A stretch of 64,000 nt of DNA from a virus (IMGVR_UViG_3300009177_000006:5488-69487); one strand, 5' to 3'; positions 40,783-57,008 are shown, counted from the stretch's first letter. Program-made: numbers and translations. Notes: a model not told the origin generated them from the letters alone.

Positions 40783-42474
40783 TTACCAGCCTTTCGCTTT
40801 GCCCGAAGGTAGGGCGGTTATACTGATGCCTTTTGGTCTTTGTGAACATTGCCACAGAGCCATGCTTTGACACACGGCTAGATCAATCGGCTTGGCATTA
40901 GCACCTGTACCTTTGACTATGCGGATTACGGTTGTGTTGGCGTCTGTCTGCACATCGGCTTTCGCCGCGTCTAGGTGCGATTCTAAATCACTATTATCGA
41001 GGTTGTCAATCTTAAACGCCTGATACTGTTGAAGCATGAACGTATCGGATTTTTTACGCTCAGTTGTTTGTCCGAACTCAGCCATTAACAGGCGGTGCTC
41101 TTTACGTAAATCCATAGCGACTTGATGCATCTGGTAAGGATCGTACCAAACGTCAATAGGCGTCAATCGCTCGCTCTCAATCGCTTTTTTCTCGCCTGCC
41201 CTTGCCTCACGTCGAAGGACAAGTCCTGAGCGATACAACCTCAGTAGTTCGGCAATGACAGTCTCTTTAAGGTCGATGTCTTTACCGCCGGGATTCCACG
41301 CCTTTGCGAAGCCGGTCTTGTACTGACCTTTATCCTCGTATACACCGCACAGACCAACGCAGTCTTTACGCATCGCGGCGTCAATCGCAAACGTCATCGC
41401 TCGGGACGCGCTGACTAGAGCCTTATTACGAAAGCTTGCGGCGAGTATCTCGGATGAGAGTAGTCGCGCCTCAGTCTTTTGCCAACGGTTCTCAAGTAAC
41501 CGCAATATGTTCGTCTCAAGCATACCGAGTCCGACTGTCTCTTGTCGGTGAGCCTCGGCGTTCTCGCCAACCTGCCACGTCATACGGTTGTCATGGTCGT
41601 TGTAATAAAAGAGTCCCTTACTTGGAACTTCATAGCAGGTTGGTATCGGCTCACCTTTGGCGTTCGTGGTCTGTATATCTATCAACTCAGGGACCGGCTG
41701 CGCGCCGACCTTTAGTTCAGTCTCGGTCGTGTCGGTGAAAATGGTTGTGTACAACTCATAGAGTAAATCAGACGAGTCCTCGAAACCGGCATACGTAACG
41801 ATAAAGCGAATTGATATGTTGCGTGTGAGAATCGGCATCAACTCATCCCACAGCAAGCGAGCGCGGTCAGATTTATATGCCCACAGTTCGTCCCAGACCG
41901 TCAGCCCGTATGTACCGCCTGCCTCGCTCTCGGGATCGCTCGTTGCGGCCTGTACGATTGAGCCGTTCGACAATATCTTTTTGAATCGTGTCTCATACTG
42001 TTTAGCCCCGAGCGCGGTCAGAGTCGGTTTAGCAAAACCATAGACACGACCAGATGATTGCTCACGGTCGTTGGCGAGTATGTATATTGAGTTCGGCGTT
42101 TCGACGTTTGCGGCAAACCAACAAGCGACCATCGAGCCGGTCGTTGACTTACCAGATTTTTTCGGACAGCTATAGACGATAGTGCGATATGGAAAGCGCC
42201 CGGTCTTAGGATCGAGCGTCAGGCATTTACGTAAGATACGTTTTTGATGCGGCGCTAATTTTACTTTCGGGACTCCGGTGAAATCGAGTGTGTTCGGGTT
42301 ACAGAATTGCGGGTCATAAAAGTTCGACTCGCACCAGTCGGCAATGTCTGGGATAGCGACTGACTTGGCAATATTTGCTTTACGTTTACTGAGTAATTTG
42401 TGTCGAAGTTTCGCCTCTAAGATTTGACGCTCGACAGGATCGAGCGCCCGTAATTGGTCTAAAGCCGGTAACAT
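40783..42474 (-). CDS. terL: terminase large subunit
   Basis: LAPHQ, PKKSGKST Walker A, VWDELW Walker B, AIDAA..D, YDPYQ, IDLAV nuclease motifs. Confidence 0.93.
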   Translation of the reverse strand: MLPALDQLRALDPVERQILEAKLRHKLLSKRKANIAKSVAIPDIADWCESNFYDPQFCNPNTLDFTGVPKVKLAPHQKRILRKCLTLDPKTGRFPYRTIVYSCPKKSGKSTTGSMVACWFAANVETPNSIYILANDREQSSGRVYGFAKPTLTALGAKQYETRFKKILSNGSIVQAATSDPESEAGGTYGLTVWDELWAYKSDRARLLWDELMPILTRNISIRFIVTYAGFEDSSDLLYELYTTIFTDTTETELKVGAQPVPELIDIQTTNAKGEPIPTCYEVPSKGLFYYNDHDNRMTWQVGENAEAHRQETVGLGMLETNILRLLENRWQKTEARLLSSEILAASFRNKALVSASRAMTFAIDAAMRKDCVGLCGVYEDKGQYKTGFAKAWNPGGKDIDLKETVIAELLRLYRSGLVLRREARAGEKKAIESERLTPIDVWYDPYQMHQVAMDLRKEHRLLMAEFGQTTERKKSDTFMLQQYQAFKIDNLDNSDLESHLDAAKADVQTDANTTVIRIVKGTGANAKPIDLAVCQSMALWQCSQRPKGISITALPSGKAKGW

Positions 42475-42603
42475 TATGCCTCTTTGTCTGGCGCGCCAGA
42501 CATTTTTTGAATATTTTTTCGGGCGCTAAAACCTTGATTTACTTCATTTATAACATTATTAAAAAAAAATGTGCAAATTAACGCCTTTTTACCCTTAAAA
42601 CAG

Positions 42604-42632
42604 TTGACATCTCTGTTAAGTACGCGTAGATT
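42604..42632 (+). promoter_or_regulatory. sigma70 early promoter of the ribozyme cassette
   Basis: TTGACA-17-TAGATT with AT-rich UP-like region upstream. Confidence 0.7.
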
Positions 42633-42760
42633 AAGTATTGTTAGGTTGATATTTGATAACTTAAGTCGGCATACATAGATTGGAATTGCCGACAGGACAT
42701 CGAAGGTACAATCAAGTATCCGATGCAAGCTTGAGGTTGACACGCACCGCAGTCAACCAA

Positions 42761-42811
42761 GACCGAAACCGGCTCAGCCGGTCTAAGCGTAAGGCGCTTA
42801 CTGATGAGGTC
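42761..42811 (+). ncRNA. type II hammerhead ribozyme HH1 (cleavage after C42783)
   Basis: GACC-GAAA-CCGGC(TCA)GCCGG-TC-TAAGCG(TAAGG)CGCTTA-CTGATGA-GGTC: complete core and three stems. Confidence 0.92.
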
Positions 42812-42836
42812 AGAATCAAAACTAGGAGCAAACAAA

Positions 42837-43049
42837 ATGGCAAAGATAATCAAACGAGTTAATGGAATGGTAGTCGCGGCGTTGACCGATAAAGAGATGA
42901 CAGACGCTAACGAGTTAGACCGATACGCAGTCTTTACTCAAGACGAATGGGAACAGGGCGCAGGTAATCGATACGCTGATATGTGTTTCGGTATGGCCGA
43001 GCACGCGATAAGCTTTGCGGTACATTACAACGACGAGGTAGATGACTAA
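42837..43049 (+). CDS. early hypothetical protein
   Basis: ACTAGGAGCAAA RBS after HH1. Confidence 0.75.
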   Translation: MAKIIKRVNGMVVAALTDKEMTDANELDRYAVFTQDEWEQGAGNRYADMCFGMAEHAISFAVHYNDEVDD

Positions 43050-43129
43050 TGTTGCTAACAATCCTACACATCATCACTGACGAGGTCGTTGTCGAATCAA
43101 TCGTGGTTTTCCTAATGGCGATACTGTAA

Positions 43130-43183
43130 GACCGAAACCGGCTCACGCCGGTCGCAACGTGAATTCGTTGCCTGACGATGGTC
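43130..43183 (+). ncRNA. type II hammerhead ribozyme HH2 (cleavage after C43153)
   Basis: GACC-GAAA-CCGGC(TCAC)GCCGG-TC-GCAACG(TGAATT)CGTTGC-CTGACGA-T-GGTC; one extra U after A9. Confidence 0.85.
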
Positions 43184-43209
43184 AGACTAAATCACTAGGA
43201 GCAAATACA

Positions 43210-43506
43210 ATGAAAAACGTAAACACCAAAACAACCGCAACCGTCAACGCAACCAAGGTCCGAGACAACATCTATCGGATGAAAGTCGGAGCCGGTCAGT
43301 CGTTCCAGATCGAACTCGAAAAGGGCGTCGCCAATGTCTTTAAGTTCTCACCTGCTCAGCGCCGATTCAAGTTCGTCGGCGAGGCCGGTAATCTTAAAGC
43401 CGCCGAAGTCGATATCCGAACTGGTAAGTATGCCAAGCTTTTCAAGTCTGAGAAGATGAGAGCGTACAAGGCTGACGGAACGTTCGTAGTTCGCAAGGCT
43501 TACTAA
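43210..43506 (+). CDS. early basic hypothetical protein
   Basis: CTAGGAGCAAA RBS after HH2. Confidence 0.75.
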   Translation: MKNVNTKTTATVNATKVRDNIYRMKVGAGQSFQIELEKGVANVFKFSPAQRRFKFVGEAGNLKAAEVDIRTGKYAKLFKSEKMRAYKADGTFVVRKAY

Positions 43507-43511
43507 GCCTA

Positions 43512-43602
43512 AGTCGAAACCGGCTGGTATCTGTGAGGCGGCAAACAGTCCGCAAACCATGACGCCAGCCGGTCTAACCGTGATGCGGTTACTGATGAGA
43601 CT
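43512..43602 (+). ncRNA. type II hammerhead ribozyme HH3 with 37-nt stem III insertion (cleavage after C43574)
   Basis: AGTC-GAAA-CCGGCTGG[insert]CCAGCCGG-TC-TAACCG(TGATG)CGGTTA-CTGATGA-GACT. Confidence 0.88.
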
Positions 43603-43625
43603 AAATCTAGGAGAGTGAACACACA

Positions 43626-43883
43626 ATGGCAACAATACAAGTCAAACGATTAAAGGCAATCTTAAAAGAATTGGGCATCACCGAGAACGTACACCTTACT
43701 AAGTATCGCCGCACATGGAAAAATCCCGAGACAGGCAAGACCGAGAGATTCAACGAGTACGGACCGGCTTTCTCGGTAGTCGGTAAACGACATCTGTCGC
43801 CCGAACAGTTGGCGAGTCTCAAGGCTCACGAGCATCTGACGGTCACACACGAAACCGATAATTTCATTCACGTTAAAAGCTAA
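43626..43883 (+). CDS. early hypothetical protein
   Basis: CTAGGAG RBS after HH3. Confidence 0.75.
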   Translation: MATIQVKRLKAILKELGITENVHLTKYRRTWKNPETGKTERFNEYGPAFSVVGKRHLSPEQLASLKAHEHLTVTHETDNFIHVKS

Positions 43884-43884
43884 A

Positions 43885-43937
43885 GACCGAAACCGGCGCC
43901 GAGCCGGTCTTGACGTTAATCGTCAACTGACGAGGTC
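43885..43937 (+). ncRNA. type II hammerhead ribozyme HH4 (cleavage after C43909)
   Basis: GACC-GAAA-CCGGC(GCCGA)GCCGG-TC-TTGACG(TTAAT)CGTCAA-CTGACGA-GGTC. Confidence 0.92.
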
Positions 43938-43961
43938 AGACTAAAAACTAGGAGCAAAATT

Positions 43962-44306
43962 ATGACAACCAAATACATCATTCAACGCGTAATCAACTTT
44001 GACGGCACGACTCGTCACTTTCTCGCTTACAACTCAACGGTCGTAGCCGAGTATGACGGACCGCTACACTCTATCGGTGAGCGAGCGTTCGGTAGGGCAG
44101 ACGGCAACGTCTGGTCATACGCCTCGGACTTACACGTTGCCAACGAGCGTGACAGTCAGATGCTTGACCACATCGCCGAAGCGACCGCCGGTCTGCGTAA
44201 GTCGCTTGATGAACTTGAGGAGTTGCGCCGAACGATAATCACGAGCGGCTACGCCTCAACCAAACCGTTGACCATCGAGAAGCTTGAAAAGATGATATCG
44301 AAATAG
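43962..44306 (+). CDS. early hypothetical protein
   Basis: ACTAGGAGCAAA RBS after HH4. Confidence 0.75.
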   Translation: MTTKYIIQRVINFDGTTRHFLAYNSTVVAEYDGPLHSIGERAFGRADGNVWSYASDLHVANERDSQMLDHIAEATAGLRKSLDELEELRRTIITSGYASTKPLTIEKLEKMISK

Positions 44307-44362
44307 TCGAAACCGGCTCAGAGCCGGTCTGGTACAGGTTGACCGCTTGCCACTGATGAGAC
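44306..44362 (+). ncRNA. type II hammerhead ribozyme HH5 (cleavage after C44329)
   Basis: GTC-GAAA-CCGGC(TCAGA)GCCGG-TC-TGGTA(..TGACC..)TGCCA-CTGATGA-GAC; loop I TGACC can pair with the 3' tail GGTCA. Confidence 0.85.
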
Positions 44363-44383
44363 AGGTCACTAGGAGTGAACATT

Positions 44384-44770
44384 ATGACACGTAAAGAAGC
44401 TATAGATTTTCTATGTAACAAGTATTCCAACGATGACACCGAAGGGTACATTGACGCGGCAGACGGTGAAGGCGATAAGTATTGGGATCAGTTCCCAACT
44501 ACTAACGAGTTAGACGCCGATTTTACACTGTACCGTGATGCGATTGACAGCGATGATATCGCCGATGACGGCTTGACTTTTACACTTGAGAATTCAGCTT
44601 ATGCTCAGGCGACTGCTAAGACGGTTGAGCAAGGTACGGCGAAGGCGTTAGTCAGTATGATTATCGGCGACATTCTCACTCGTGACGAGGATGACGATGA
44701 CGTGCCGGACAGTCTGCTCGATATTGACGAGCCTGACTATGACTATGAGTACGACGATTTAGGAGACTGA
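44384..44770 (+). CDS. very acidic early protein (DNA-mimic candidate)
   Basis: CTAGGAG RBS after HH5; 38 D/E vs 8 K/R in 128 aa. Confidence 0.75.
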   Translation: MTRKEAIDFLCNKYSNDDTEGYIDAADGEGDKYWDQFPTTNELDADFTLYRDAIDSDDIADDGLTFTLENSAYAQATAKTVEQGTAKALVSMIIGDILTRDEDDDDVPDSLLDIDEPDYDYEYDDLGD

Positions 44771-44771
44771 T

Positions 44772-44954
44772 ATGACAGACCGAGAGAGATTGATTAACAG
44801 TGCCGAGCGTGAACGGTGTTACAGCCGGTTACGCTCACTTGAAAAACGGTTGCCAAAGCCGTTATGTTGGAAGAATATCAAGTCATCGCCAGTCCGACAT
44901 CTGACGATGCTGATTGCGGTGTATGAGAAACGCCTTAAGGTAAAGGCGGTATAG
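44772..44954 (+). CDS. small basic hypothetical protein
   Basis: TAGGAG RBS. Confidence 0.6.
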   Translation: MTDRERLINSAERERCYSRLRSLEKRLPKPLCWKNIKSSPVRHLTMLIAVYEKRLKVKAV

Positions 44955-44964
44955 GAGTCAAATT

Positions 44965-45444
44965 ATGAGCGAAACTAAAACAGTAGGTGATAAGGTTTTC
45001 ATTACTCAGCAATGGTTGTATACAGGTCAGACCGAAGGCGTTGCCAGTAAAACGGTTGAACGGTTTACGGTATTAGACGAGAACGGCGATATGACCGATG
45101 AGACACGATGTTTCAAAAAGCCGAAAGGCTCGTATCTAGTGCCGGGATATGTCTATGATGCGACGATTGAGCAATTACCCGAGAACCGTATATCGTTAAT
45201 CGGCTCGCCAGCCTTTAGACACGTCTATCCTAATCAGGAGGTCGTTGACCGGCTACGTGCCGAGTCATCGGCTCGTGCTCAGCTTATCAGGTCTGAGGCT
45301 CAAGCCAAAAAAGCGGCTGGCGAATGGTTTGATACGTGGGACCGTCTGGTTACGGCGTACAAGAACCTGTCAAGCTTTGGTGACCAGTTAGGATTTGAAG
45401 CCGCTGTAATCGCCCGTATGCGTAAGGACGCTAGGCGTAAATAA
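44965..45444 (+). CDS. hypothetical protein
   Basis: TAGGAG RBS. Confidence 0.7.
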   Translation: MSETKTVGDKVFITQQWLYTGQTEGVASKTVERFTVLDENGDMTDETRCFKKPKGSYLVPGYVYDATIEQLPENRISLIGSPAFRHVYPNQEVVDRLRAESSARAQLIRSEAQAKKAAGEWFDTWDRLVTAYKNLSSFGDQLGFEAAVIARMRKDARRK

Positions 45445-45448
45445 CATC

Positions 45449-45479
45449 GAGCCGGTCACACGACCGGCTTTAACCTTTT
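45449..45479 (+). terminator. putative intrinsic terminator closing the early cassette
   Basis: AGCCGGTC(ACAC)GACCGGCT hairpin then T-rich tail. Confidence 0.55.
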
Positions 45480-45515
45480 CGTGTCTGGCGCGCCAGACAA
45501 AATCGGAGGATCGAA

Positions 45516-45896
45516 ATGAGAAAAACAATTATCGAAATCGTTGTCATTTTCGTCATCGCTCTGGCGATGTGTCTGGCGTTGTTTATCGAGGCGTCTAACG
45601 CGCAGGTCACGACCGTATCAGGTCGTGTGTATCGTGAGGTCTACGGACTGCAAATCCCCGTCAGTCGCACGTATGTCGCTCTGTACGATAGTCACGGTCT
45701 ACAGGCCGCAACGTACACGTCAACCTTTGGTTACTATCAACTCAACGTGCCGAACTATGATTACTACGTGGTTGTGGCAACGAGCCGGTTATATCTATTT
45801 GAGCCGGGAGCCGTGGTCTTTAACAGCGCCTTTGACGATGGTCACGGTTTTCACTTTGACTTCGTCGGTGTGCCGCCGCCAACGCGAGGTCGTTGA
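45516..45896 (+). CDS. exported carboxypeptidase-regulatory-like (beta-sandwich) domain protein
   Basis: Signal peptide; VSGRV..VALYD..TSTFGYYQL..YYVVVA pattern. Confidence 0.7.
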   Translation: MRKTIIEIVVIFVIALAMCLALFIEASNAQVTTVSGRVYREVYGLQIPVSRTYVALYDSHGLQAATYTSTFGYYQLNVPNYDYYVVVATSRLYLFEPGAVVFNSAFDDGHGFHFDFVGVPPPTRGR

Positions 45897-46189
45897 CTTA
45901 CATACTCTTTCAAATCGTGTGACCAAAATACCACACGAACGCCGGTTGCAAAACCGGCTTTTTTTGTGTACGTGACAAAGCCGCACATACCGTCCGACCA
46001 CTGTACGACATAGCGCCCGTCTTTAGTCGGCATACGGTCGATGTACTTAACCCATTTGCGGTAACCTTCGGGTTCTACCCACTCAACAATTTTAACGCCT
46101 CGCGCATTACGAGGTTTGCCGTTAAAGCTGTTAACGCGCCATTGCTGTTCCTGCGGTATACCGCGACGATTCATATCTTTACGATTCAT
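45851..46189 (-). CDS. hypothetical protein
   Basis: Coupled to upstream minus-strand gene; tail overlaps the convergent gene. Confidence 0.45.
   Translation of the reverse strand: MNRKDMNRRGIPQEQQWRVNSFNGKPRNARGVKIVEWVEPEGYRKWVKYIDRMPTKDGRYVVQWSDGMCGFVTYTKKAGFATGVRVVFWSHDLKEYVSQRPRVGGGTPTKSK
45941..45965 (+). terminator. intrinsic terminator
   Basis: GCCGGTT(GCAA)AACCGGC followed by T7. Confidence 0.75.
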
Positions 46190-46583
46190 GTTGTTTTATT
46201 GCCCTTGTTAGTATCACCGACTGCTCCCAGAGGCAGTGACCGATAAGTGGCGCCGTGACCTCTGGAAATACCTCTCTAAGAATCTCGTAATACTTGCGGC
46301 TCCCGATGTAAAGAACCGGCTGATGTGCAATCATCATACGCTGTGCTTGGTTGCGTATTACAGCGCTTGTGACGGTCTTTTCTCGCGGACCTATGTCATA
46401 AGGTTCGATGACATCAGTTAAGCGCAGTAGACCGTGTTTAGCACTGACGATGAATATCTGAGGATCGCTGAACTTGGTTTGCAGATATCGCCTCGTCATC
46501 CGATGATACGCACCGTTGTACATATCAATTGCCGCCGAGGTTGTCTTGAGTTTACGTGTACCGCAACTACATATCCCAATCAT
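46179..46583 (-). CDS. DUF6884 / YaaA-like protein
   Basis: ICSCGTRK..AIDMYNG..IVSAKHGLL..IEPYD motifs; start moved to the ATG after the palindrome. Confidence 0.7.
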   Translation of the reverse strand: MIGICSCGTRKLKTTSAAIDMYNGAYHRMTRRYLQTKFSDPQIFIVSAKHGLLRLTDVIEPYDIGPREKTVTSAVIRNQAQRMMIAHQPVLYIGSRKYYEILREVFPEVTAPLIGHCLWEQSVILTRAIKQHES

Positions 46584-46605
46584 AATTTGTCTGGCGCGCC
46601 AGACA

Positions 46606-46923
46606 TCAATACGCGACTTGTTTGATGATGTGATAACACCGACCGGCTGATACAAACGAGCCGACCAGTTCCATACGCCAGCCTGACGCCTTCGGCCACG
46701 GATCGCCAGCCGCGATTCTGTGAAAGTTTAACCAGTCATCCTCTGTACTCGATAACGGTGCGGCATAATCAAGGTACGTCAAGTTGCCGAGTGTGTACAC
46801 ATTGAGTAACCGGCTGTGCATCGGTAGTCGTAAGCTGAAAATTCGTCGGTCAGGAATGGCCGTCCTTAAGACCTGCTCAGTTGCGTCTACGAGCCTCGTT
46901 TCGGTGTGGTTGACCTTATCCAT
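46606..46923 (-). CDS. hypothetical protein
   Basis: AGGAGG RBS. Confidence 0.65.
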   Translation of the reverse strand: MDKVNHTETRLVDATEQVLRTAIPDRRIFSLRLPMHSRLLNVYTLGNLTYLDYAAPLSSTEDDWLNFHRIAAGDPWPKASGWRMELVGSFVSAGRCYHIIKQVAY

Positions 46924-56095: not shown

Positions 56096-57008
56096 AATTT
56101 TCTCCTAGTATGAACGCCGTCAACGTTGCCACGTCTGAGATGTTTTCGGCGTTGCTAAAGTAAACCTTGATATCCTGTTGCCAGTATTGAGTGAGCCATA
56201 AAGAAGCTTGCGCCCACGCGACACCGTCAACTAGACACGCATAAACCCGCTTGTACTTTTCCTTGTCAACAAACCACTCGGGATCAAGACCGAGCGCACG
56301 GAAACGTTTGCCGTGTTTATAGACACTCGCCTTATCCCAGAGCGTCGCTTTCATAAACTCGCCTTTACCGTCAAAGAAAACTAATCGCCCGTATATCGCA
56401 CCGGCGTTCCAACTCGAGGAGTCAACCGAGTGCCAAGGGAAGCTTTTAAGTAACTTCCAATTCGTCATGCCAAAGCCGTGAAACTTACAGCCGGTTGTCT
56501 GAGCCATTTTGAAACAGGTGATGAAGTAAGACATCAGATTCTTACGGTCAGTAGCGAACGGCACAAGACCGCCGAGCGCAATGTAATCGTAATCCTTCAT
56601 CAGCTTATCGAGTATCTTAAAATCAGCGCCCACATGAAAGACCGGCAAAGGCGTCAGGTCATACGCATTCTCAAGATACTCTTGATTCTTAGCGGTCTGT
56701 TTCTCGTTGCCGATGACATCGAAATTAGCATAGGTCAGAAAGTGCTTTTTGTGTTTTGTTAACCATCGAGCGTAATCATCGATATCAATCTGCGCGCCTT
56801 GAGTTGCCGCTGAGAACGCACCGGAGTCCGCAAAGAGTTTAGGCGCACCGAGCGGAAACAGCTTCGGCAACTGCTTATCGAAATCGAAGTCACGAAAGTA
56901 ATGGTATGAGGTCAGCGAGTAAGGTTGAAAGCCTTTAAGCATGACCTGTACAGGCGTTGTCATATCTCTGATGTTTAAGAGGACCGTGTTTGAGATAAAG
57001 CTAATCAT
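56067..57008 (-). CDS. dpdA: TGT-fold 7-deazaguanine DNA transglycosylase (DpdA-like)
   Basis: FADSGAFS, NFDVIG, PVFH, ALGGLV, FHGFG, SVDSSSW; adjacent to queC. Confidence 0.75.
   Translation of the reverse strand: MISFISNTVLLNIRDMTTPVQVMLKGFQPYSLTSYHYFRDFDFDKQLPKLFPLGAPKLFADSGAFSAATQGAQIDIDDYARWLTKHKKHFLTYANFDVIGNEKQTAKNQEYLENAYDLTPLPVFHVGADFKILDKLMKDYDYIALGGLVPFATDRKNLMSYFITCFKMAQTTGCKFHGFGMTNWKLLKSFPWHSVDSSSWNAGAIYGRLVFFDGKGEFMKATLWDKASVYKHGKRFRALGLDPEWFVDKEKYKRVYACLVDGVAWAQASLWLTQYWQQDIKVYFSNAENISDVATLTAFILGENYGLEHKVDG

Follow-up and report, generated by a model that had tools for sequence, protein, structure and literature searches.

Five type II hammerhead ribozymes in a cassette of small bacteriophage genes, a predicted self-processing transcript with a layout known from prophages

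Introduction

Multiple hammerhead ribozymes that flank one gene or a short gene block have been described in prophages, and their cleavage was shown (Perreault et al., 2011, PLoS Comput Biol, PMC3088659). According to the main text of that paper, tandem prophage hammerheads efficiently cut transcripts of ~2 kb in vitro and one triple set cleaves in Escherichia coli; an anti-restriction gene is flanked by one published triple set. A review of 2019 repeats the idea of transcript processing and presents the purpose as still to be defined (PMC6765202). Three type II hammerheads of Desulfovibrio vulgaris were found to be active in vivo by cyPhyRNA-seq, their copies leaving 5'-OH and 2',3'-cyclic phosphate termini (Olzog et al., 2021, PMC8782182). 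Beyond these three sources, nothing dissecting the function of phage hammerhead arrays was found in open texts, supplements aside. Here we describe a cassette of small genes with five type II hammerhead motifs, HH1 to HH5, in the virus genome IMGVR_UViG_3300009177_000006, of which a stretch of 64,000 nt (hereafter, the window; positions are counted from its first base) was analysed.

The cassette resembles the prophage clusters in that several co-oriented type II hammerheads lie within a few kb, between small and varying phage genes, and in the role proposed for them, which is to divide a long transcript of the phage into mRNAs of operon length or of a single gene. It differs from them in having five copies, the tested sets having three, in the position of the first copy, located in the 5' untranslated region (UTR) behind the promoter, and in belonging to a free phage genome with terminal repeats and not to a prophage. 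In addition, when compared with the main text of Perreault et al. (2011), four of the five copies depart from the majority design, as they lack its pseudoknot and have a conserved short apical loop instead. The hammerheads of D. vulgaris are likewise of type II and close to hypothetical or phage-like genes, with one pair ~300 nt apart; however, they are chromosomal, at most two are adjacent, and neither a per-gene array nor a standard leader is described in the open text of that report (PMC8782182). The layout has been known in phages since 2011 and this locus is a clean, modest-sized example of it. The initial annotation of this DNA had read the cassette as a self-processing polycistronic mRNA, which remains the best-supported reading by analogy with the cleaving hammerheads of the tandem prophage sets and of D. 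vulgaris. Its further suggestion that an array with one ribozyme per gene was undescribed does not stand, given the gene-flanking prophage clusters and at least 35 other viral loci with 2–11 co-oriented copies.

Other known systems are comparable in part. The Rfam family Hammerhead_II (RF02276) has the same core and the same circular permutation, and HH5 aligns over its full model including the pseudoknot tail. In bacteriophage T7, the early polycistronic transcript is cut by the host RNase III at double-stranded sites, giving individual mRNAs with hairpin ends, a 5'-phosphate and a 3'-OH. The likeness to T7 is one of function and not of membership, since here the RNA would cut itself and leave a 5'-OH and a cyclic phosphate. 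RiboJ is a synthetic ribozyme insulator that removes variable 5' sequence and leaves a hairpin and a fixed leader before the ribosome-binding site. HH1, behind two promoter-like sites, has a RiboJ-like layout, although RiboJ is engineered, its ribozyme is of other origin, and the array described here repeats before each gene.

This locus adds a comparison of orthologous cassettes in which module turnover is seen, a ribozyme located in the 5' UTR, the coexistence of two structural subclasses in one array and a documented blind spot of Rfam. It also offers a convenient test bed, with five ribozymes in 1.6 kb and predictable fragments, a 5' UTR copy through which insulation can be tested, and a gene, orf6, that has a ribozyme in front in the closest relative found and none here.

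Five type II hammerheads between small genes

The + strand unit 42604–45965 is, with a probability of roughly three in four, a small accessory-gene operon whose transcript would be cut into mRNAs by five hammerheads, cleavage of HH1–HH5 being expected by analogy with the published ones. The elements, with their scores in the covariance model R1 presented below, are the following; all five were read from the sequence and recovered by the parser and the covariance model.

42761–42811, + strand: HH1, stem II GACC/GGUC, stem III of 6 bp, stem I of 7 bp, UAAGG loop; 54.4 bits
43130–43183, + strand: HH2, C7 variant with an extra U between CUGACGA and stem II and an 18-nt stem I hairpin; 47.5 bits
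43512–43602, + strand: HH3, long stem III insertion, stem II AGUC/GACU; 49.7 bits
43885–43937, + strand: HH4, C7 variant; 52.3 bits
44305–44368 including the tail (motif 44305–44363), + strand: HH5, pseudoknot kind, 3-bp stem II; 56.7 bits

All five motifs consist, in this order, of a stem II strand, GAAA, the stem III hairpin, GUC, the stem I hairpin, CUGA(U/C)GA and the second stem II strand. The core is present in 5/5 (C3-U4-G5-A6-N7-G8-A9, G12-A13-A14, the A15.1-U16.1 pair and the GUC triplet). N7 is U in HH1, HH3 and HH5 (CUGAUGA) and C in HH2 and HH4 (CUGACGA); the latter is therefore a common variant, as it is found in 18 of the 51 copies, among the matches listed, of the short class defined below. 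The predicted cut nucleotide, C17, lies at 42783, 43153, 43574, 43909 and 44329 for HH1 to HH5, respectively. Stem I has 5–7 bp, with a different sequence that nevertheless pairs in each copy, and stem III has 6–10 bp. Stem II comprises 4 bp in HH1–HH4, being GACC/GGUC in HH1, HH2 and HH4 and AGUC/GACU in HH3, and 3 bp (GUC/GAC) in HH5. The extra U that precedes stem II in HH2 was also present in 12 of the 51 short-class copies among the matches listed. The insertion of HH3 (43525–43568) places 41 nt where the covariance model has 4 and extends stem III to 10 bp; the minimum free energy (MFE) structure of isolated HH3 is the hammerhead fold (z −3.47). In HH5, a possible 5-bp pseudoknot between loop I (44340–44344, UGACC) and the tail (44364–44368, GGUCA) was read from the sequence.

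The five copies are placed within 1.6 kb, co-oriented with the genes, each between a stop codon (or the promoter) and a start codon preceded by a Shine-Dalgarno (SD) sequence. The upstream stops end 0–5 nt before HH2–HH5, the TAG of orf4 overlapping stem II of HH5, and an ATG preceded by CTAGGAG is found 20–26 nt downstream of each element. All this agrees with the initial annotation, whose coordinates are exact for HH1–HH4 and one base short for HH5, extended to 44363 in the covariance model. Direct reading and the generic parser bear out the complete core order, the cut positions it predicted coincide with C17, and its variable yet pairing stem I, covarying stem II and distances to stops (~5 nt) and starts were also recovered.

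Significance of the motifs

The motifs were also sought with a generic type II parser, which requires GAAA, hairpins for stems III and I with U-H between them, CUGANGA after the latter hairpin, and closure of stem II by the upstream flank. When both strands of the 64-kb window were searched, exactly five matches were obtained, all of them in the cassette. The chance expectation, obtained from 100 first-order Markov simulations with the dinucleotide make-up of the window, was a mean of 0.03 matches per window, with a maximum of 1. The simpler pattern CCGGTC-N12-40-CTGANGA matched six times against 0.28 expected, five matches corresponding to HH1–HH5; the sixth, at 56597 on the − strand, fails the parser. 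A sixth exact copy of CGAAACCGGC, at 41781, was also discarded, being inside the terminase gene and having no hammerhead core downstream.

Copies from outside the window were obtained by scanning viral contigs with a loose pattern made of the stem III arms of the window and CUGANGA, with stems I and II free, which gave at least 120 loci. The model R1 was built from 110 copies picked at random among 174 distinct parsed non-window copies of up to 75 nt; helices were assigned by majority vote and searches were run with filters off. In the window, R1 scored the five elements at 47.5–56.7 bits (E 3e-12 to 4e-15), the sixth-best match having 11.8 bits, and no hammerhead other than these five was found by searching the whole genome with R1. 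In the training alignment (A2, 110 copies), 92.9% of the positions were paired compared with 62.9% in shuffles. As the A2 copies had been selected by the parser for pairing, a fairer test is provided by pattern matches without any requirement on stems I and II. Among the matches listed there were 147 of these, of which 136 had a stem I of 4 bp or more, compared with 6 in the shuffle control, 134 had a stem II of 3 bp or more, compared with 16 in the control, and 125 had both stems.

Two structural subclasses and the Rfam models

The array is mixed. HH5 can adopt the majority pseudoknot design, and HH1–HH4 belong to a compact class in which the stem I hairpin has 17 nt, stem II has 4 bp with an A on either side, and the pseudoknot is lacking. 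This short class, represented by 51 distinct copies among the matches listed, has the apex G-U-N-A-N-G-C; in these copies the apical loop positions G6, U7, A9, G11 and C12 were conserved in 50, 49, 43, 45 and 50 cases, respectively, and an A was found before stem II in 49 and after it in 40. The fit is complete for HH1 and HH3; in HH4 position G11 is occupied by U, and the loop of HH2 measures 6 nt. No convincing covariation between loop I and the flank was seen in the 51 short-class copies among the matches listed, the top mutual information arising from rare variants.

With the Rfam gathering score no hit was obtained in the whole window, and in E-value mode (42400–45700, 3.3 kb) only HH5 was reported, with 32.7 bits for RF02276 against a cut-off of 37, HH1–HH4 remaining unreported even at E up to 10. 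The check with Rfam Hammerhead_II that the initial annotation had proposed gave no support at the curated threshold. A partial alignment of Hammerhead_3 over HH1 (16.8 bits) was rejected as a mis-permuted match. On a test set of 14 loci, RF02276 detected 25 copies of the pseudoknot type, and none was detected at the gathering score in the seven short-class loci (L004, L005, L031, L045, L082, L089 and L095). Since Rfam misses the short-loop subclass generally, arrays of this kind are under-annotated in viral metagenomes. More speculatively, the short class, which current Rfam models do not see, may use an undescribed tertiary contact.

A relative with three hammerheads

Comparison of region 42400–46000 by blastn with 50,697 phage records gave no match, and neither did a terminase-based search of viral contigs (IMG/VR). 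The same terminase search in metagenome contigs gave 13 loci, the closest relative found being L130, with a terminase 65% identical. L130 contains three hammerheads (48.4–55.6 bits), with catalytic positions intact in 3/3, in a cassette that likewise diverges from the terminase gene terL. No hammerheads (E ≤0.01) were detected in the other 12 terminase loci and L129, including L131 (42% identity, 5.8 kb upstream).

Homologues of orf2 (47% identical), orf6 (40%) and orf7 (25%) are present in L130 in the same order, and the open reading frames (ORFs) between them are unrelated to those of the window. The counterpart of HH2 (1743–1795, − strand of L130) precedes the orf2 homologue and keeps the unusual 6-nt UGAAUU loop; side-by-side reading of both revealed compensatory changes in stems I, II and III. 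When the eight copies (five of the window and three of L130) were aligned for covariation, in an alignment fitted to the model, 95.9% of the cells were paired and 12 of 16 pairs had changed on both sides, slid controls giving 12.6–40.4%.

Between orf2 and orf6 the window has HH3-orf3-HH4-orf4-HH5-orf5, compared with hammerhead-orfC-hammerhead in L130. The orf6 gene is coupled to orf5 in the window and preceded by a ribozyme in L130, which has in addition neither a ribozyme nor a long leader between its promoter-like site and the first gene. Variable genes that carry their own ribozyme, together with the differences in orf6 and in the leader, therefore indicate that ribozyme-leader-ORF units behave as modules that are gained and lost.

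Such turnover could also mean that the hammerhead-leader units are mainly boundaries of modules at the DNA level, in which short shared sequences promote the exchange of cassettes and RNA cleavage is secondary. The unrelated ORFs inserted in the orf2–orf6 interval and the orf6 homologue with a hammerhead in L130 and without it in the window are what this explanation would predict. So are the identical flanks of HH1, HH2 and HH4 (AAGACCGAAACCGGC on the 5' side and GGTCAGA...ACTAGGAGCA on the 3' side) and the flanked genes of prophages, which according to the main text of PMC3088659 are not constant. However, selection acts on RNA structure, as the stems vary with compensation and the 13 catalytic positions are invariant, and the identical flank stretches measure only ~15–25 nt. 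For these reasons we consider it unlikely that exchange is the main role; nor would it exclude the cutting of RNA, since both roles are compatible.

Similar arrays in other viral contigs

Among the 120 loci listed in the scan of viral contigs, at least 108 contained copies accepted by the parser, which were at least 190 in number. At least 35 non-window loci carry 2–11 copies, co-oriented in 35/35, and at least 18 have three or more. Among the matches listed, the median spacing of copies was 587 nt; an ORF start was found 5–45 nt downstream of 154/190 copies (268/975 random positions) and a stop codon −4 to 30 nt upstream of 164/190 (222/975 random positions). The median distance from hammerhead to ORF start was 26 nt and an SD sequence was present in 137 cases, also among the matches listed. 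As distances elsewhere are similar, the spacings of 20–26 nt and 0–5 nt in the window are therefore typical.

The ORFs downstream of these hammerheads had a median length of 110 residues; 150 of 162 were scanned, and the 63 PHROG families matched were mostly of no known function. Named families include RusA, clamp loader, exonuclease VIII, Ku-like, HNH, transposase and anti-restriction proteins, and no virion protein was present among the 25 PHROG families listed. By analogy, these replication, recombination and accessory families may weakly favour an early or accessory setting.

Among the matches listed, much longer co-oriented arrays than that of the window were those of L105 (11 copies), L012 (11), L025 (7) and L060 (6), with one copy per gene over ~3–8 kb; the two sets of 11 copies each span ~8 kb. 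Stem III in phage hammerheads ranged from 3 to 14 bp with variable loops among the matches listed. A short word (CAAGCGGCAC-like) is found again and again in the stem III loops of L012 and recurs in leaders.

Genome setting and limits of the transcription unit

The record is an uncultured IMG/VR virus of 69,487 bp with direct terminal repeats, rated complete, and the window comprises its bases 5488–69487. PHROG matches include the terminase large subunit (40783–42474, − strand), portal, endolysin, virion and tail proteins, as well as a helicase, an Erf-like annealing protein and a queuine-tRNA-ribosyltransferase-like protein. The terminase, portal, endolysin and tail matches indicate that this is the genome of a tailed phage. 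From 6261 to 58873 nearly all long ORFs are encoded on the − strand. The exception is a single + strand island, 42604–45965, which begins 130 nt from the terminase start, runs in the opposite direction and contains eight ORFs of 60–159 residues with CTAGGAG/GGAGG-type ribosome-binding sites. Its limits are marked by the following elements:

42604–42632, + strand: P1, promoter-like TTGACA-17-TAGATT, 10/12 (consensus match)
42653–42681, + strand: P2, second promoter-like TTGATA-17-TAGATT, 9/12 (consensus match)
42639–42783, + strand: structured 5' leader removable by HH1, its start predicted from P1 and its end being C17 of HH1
45450–45469, + strand: G+C-rich hairpin after orf7, weak as + strand terminator and listed by the terminator scan on the − strand only
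45482–45499, no strand: copy of an 18-bp palindrome, 16 nt before the orf8 start (exact match)
45941–45958, + strand: terminator-like hairpin with a T run behind it, where the unit probably ends (terminator scan)

The pattern TTGAYA-N16-18-TAGATT occurs only twice in the window, as P1 and P2, against 0.03 expected, and reading of the sequences revealed a comparable hexamer pair and a comparable start of the spacer at the place of P1 in L130. Two corrections to the initial annotation follow from this list. Instead of one sigma70 promoter there are two tandem promoter-like sites, and the one terminator-like hairpin that it described is not called as a + strand terminator at 45450–45469, the clear + strand site being at 45941–45958, one gene further. 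The leader 42639–42783 has an MFE of −44.7 kcal/mol (z −3.80; 0/200 shuffles folded equally well). Its part ahead of HH1 (42639–42760) forms four hairpins and includes P2.

Proposed processing of the transcript

Transcription would start, divergently from the terminase gene, at one or two sigma70-like promoters, and each hammerhead would fold once completed by the polymerase and cut after C17. The expected products are the leader, a short structured RNA (~145 nt) with a terminal cyclic phosphate, to which no leader in L130 corresponds; the single-gene mRNAs 42784–43153, 43154–43574, 43575–43909 and 43910–44329, the first possibly with a mini-ORF; and a longer mRNA from 44330 with orf5–orf7 and perhaps orf8. 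In downstream products, the 5'-OH would be followed by the stem I hairpin and then by a near-standard leader (CTAGGAG, with the ATG 20–26 nt after the ribozyme). Upstream products would retain their stop codon, and their 3' end, ~23 nt beyond it, would be formed by the G+C-rich stem III hairpin and carry a 2',3'-cyclic phosphate. The two products would part at once, because only an open stem II of 3–4 bp joins them.

The benefit would be defined, context-independent ends for each gene, with stability and translation uncoupled from neighbours and promoter. As a 5' leader would be removed by HH1, insulation through defined ends, and not merely the separation of genes, seems to be the purpose. 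Both this benefit and the early timing proposed in the initial annotation are putative, promoter-like consensus matches being what the sequence offers for the latter. The proposal of the initial annotation that a 5'-OH makes these mRNAs poor substrates of RNase E/J is partly doubtful. RNase E disfavours 5'-OH ends, and the 5'-OH product of the glmS ribozyme is reportedly degraded by RNase J1 in Bacillus. As 5'-OH ends are treated differently by RNase E and J1, a stabilising effect would depend on the nucleases of the host.

Several observations weigh against this proposal. The sequences used to train R1 had been retrieved with the stem III pattern of the window, so that the share of the score due to stem III is not independent. 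None of the five elements reaches the RF02276 gathering score (37 bits), a threshold that is a curation rule for one model and not a biochemical criterion. When 100 nt of flank were included in a nearest-neighbour model, which ignores tertiary contacts, stem II had a pairing probability of only 0.00–0.19. The fold of lowest energy in HH2 and HH4 is a competing hairpin (CUGAC...GUCAG), and these two copies also depart from the loop consensus of the short class. HH1–HH4 lack the pseudoknot between loop I and the 3' tail, as no complement of 4 bp or more was seen by eye; this contact was found to be critical for the rapid cleavage of the majority type II design (PMC3088659, main text). Finally, a ribosome terminating at the adjacent stop would overlap stem II, and cleavage may in consequence compete with translation.

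Some of these features could be expected if cleavage were conditional, the hammerheads acting as switches governed by upstream translation, by Mg2+ or, in HH3, by a ligand or factor at the stem III insert. Stops abut or overlap stem II, alternative hairpins compete with it in HH2 and HH4, and the insert of HH3 is long and structured. Nevertheless, the competing hairpin is not shared, as the short class keeps only the A after stem II (40/51 among the matches listed), with no conserved complement to CU, and stem III is free to vary in length among phage hammerheads. As other phage copies (e.g., L012) commonly have long and variable inserts in this stem, that of HH3 alone is no sign of an allosteric ribozyme, and no aptamer family was matched in Rfam (gathering score in the whole window and E-value mode in 42400–45700). 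Conditional cleavage appears accordingly quite improbable to us. The CUGAY-GAG-GUCAG hairpin of HH1, HH2 and HH4 had been considered as a conserved switch and was rejected, since the tail that it requires is not conserved in the short class.

The four segments of 335–421 nt that are flanked by hammerheads on both sides might alternatively be joined by a host RtcB-type ligase into circular or spliced RNAs. Ends with 5'-OH and 2',3'-cyclic phosphate suit a ligase of this type. Against this, nothing in the sequence requires ligation, and spliced or circular products of tandem hammerheads were sought by Perreault et al. (2011) and none was detected (PMC3088659, data not shown there), so we regard joining as very improbable. 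The least probable explanation, that the elements are inactive relics or plain intergenic hairpins (stems III and I as stabilisers or terminators) resembling hammerheads, would agree with the sub-threshold Rfam scores and the marginal stem II in context, and is opposed by catalytic positions intact in 5/5 window and 3/3 L130 copies, by the chance expectation of 0.03 and by compensatory changes maintaining all three stems. RNase III-type processing sites were discarded, as the elements are three-way junctions with a hammerhead core and not extended duplexes.

Genes of the cassette

The genes of the cassette, as found by comparison with PHROGs and Pfam, with L130 or by reading of the sequence, are the following:

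42837–43049, + strand: orf1, 70 residues, no family (PHROGs/Pfam)
43049–43129, + strand: possible hydrophobic mini-ORF of 26 codons overlapping the orf1 stop (TAATG; read from the sequence)
43210–43506, + strand: orf2, 98 residues, no family (PHROGs/Pfam); its L130 homologue, 47% identical, also has a hammerhead in front
43626–43883, + strand: orf3, 85 residues, no family (PHROGs/Pfam)
43962–44306, + strand: orf4, 114 residues, only a weak match to phrog_1402 (function unknown), E 0.0034 (PHROGs)
44384–44770, + strand: orf5, 128 residues, very acidic C-terminus, orphan (PHROGs/Pfam, homologue search)
44772–44954, + strand: orf6, 60 residues, no hammerhead in front, start overlapping the orf5 stop (TGATATG; sequence)
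44965–45444, + strand: orf7, 159 residues, no hammerhead in front, L130 homologue 25% identical (sequence, L130 comparison)
45516–45896, + strand: orf8, 126 residues, hydrophobic N-terminus, sub-threshold CarboxypepD_reg match of 17.4 bits against 32.3 (Pfam)

No cassette ORF had a significant Pfam or PHROG family, the matches of orf4 and orf8 being weak and sub-threshold, and the role in host takeover or anti-defence suggested for them in the initial annotation is putative. In a search among 5.8 billion proteins the only relative of orf5 was itself (21 candidates of 70–224 residues; the search is word-based and distant relatives could escape it). The acidic stretch of orf5 is its strongly acidic C-terminal third. 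An acidic orphan behind a hammerhead recalls the DNA-mimic anti-restriction proteins, and a putative role of this kind for orf5 is a guess. For orf7, all matches in the protein atlas were below 0.9 and with TM below 0.5, and were uninformative. Beyond the cassette, the gene at 46179–46655 (− strand) matches DUF6884 (PF21818, E 1.4e-17) and phrog_5935.

Palindromic repeats

The perfect 18-bp palindrome TGTCTGGCGCGCCAGACA has 30 exact copies in the window (1183–63027) and none with 1–2 mismatches. Two of them, at 42485–42502 and 45482–45499, flank the cassette. Of the 30 copies, 12 are located 10–37 nt ahead of an SD-start on one strand, and the leaders there, e.g., AAAACTAGGAGCAAATCAATG, resemble those that follow the hammerheads.

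A tentative and rather doubtful idea is that gene starts are marked in this phage lineage by two interchangeable devices placed before the same leader (A-rich, CTAGGAGCAAA, ATG), a hammerhead in the fast-turnover accessory cassette and a palindromic hairpin elsewhere. The palindrome would then be the protein-dependent counterpart of the ribozyme, forming or protecting RNA ends, and ribozyme-leader-ORF units would be exchangeable.

Most palindrome copies are flanked by a 5' T run and a 3' A run. Among other IMG/VR contigs, TGTCTGGCGCGCCAGACA was found in one only, once. In L130, the variant CTCTGGCGCGCCAGAG is present twice in 6.2 kb (L130:678 and L130:2361), one copy at the same place before terL and the other within the orf7 homologue, in frame. 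The site is thus a natural one, whose copies change together within a lineage.

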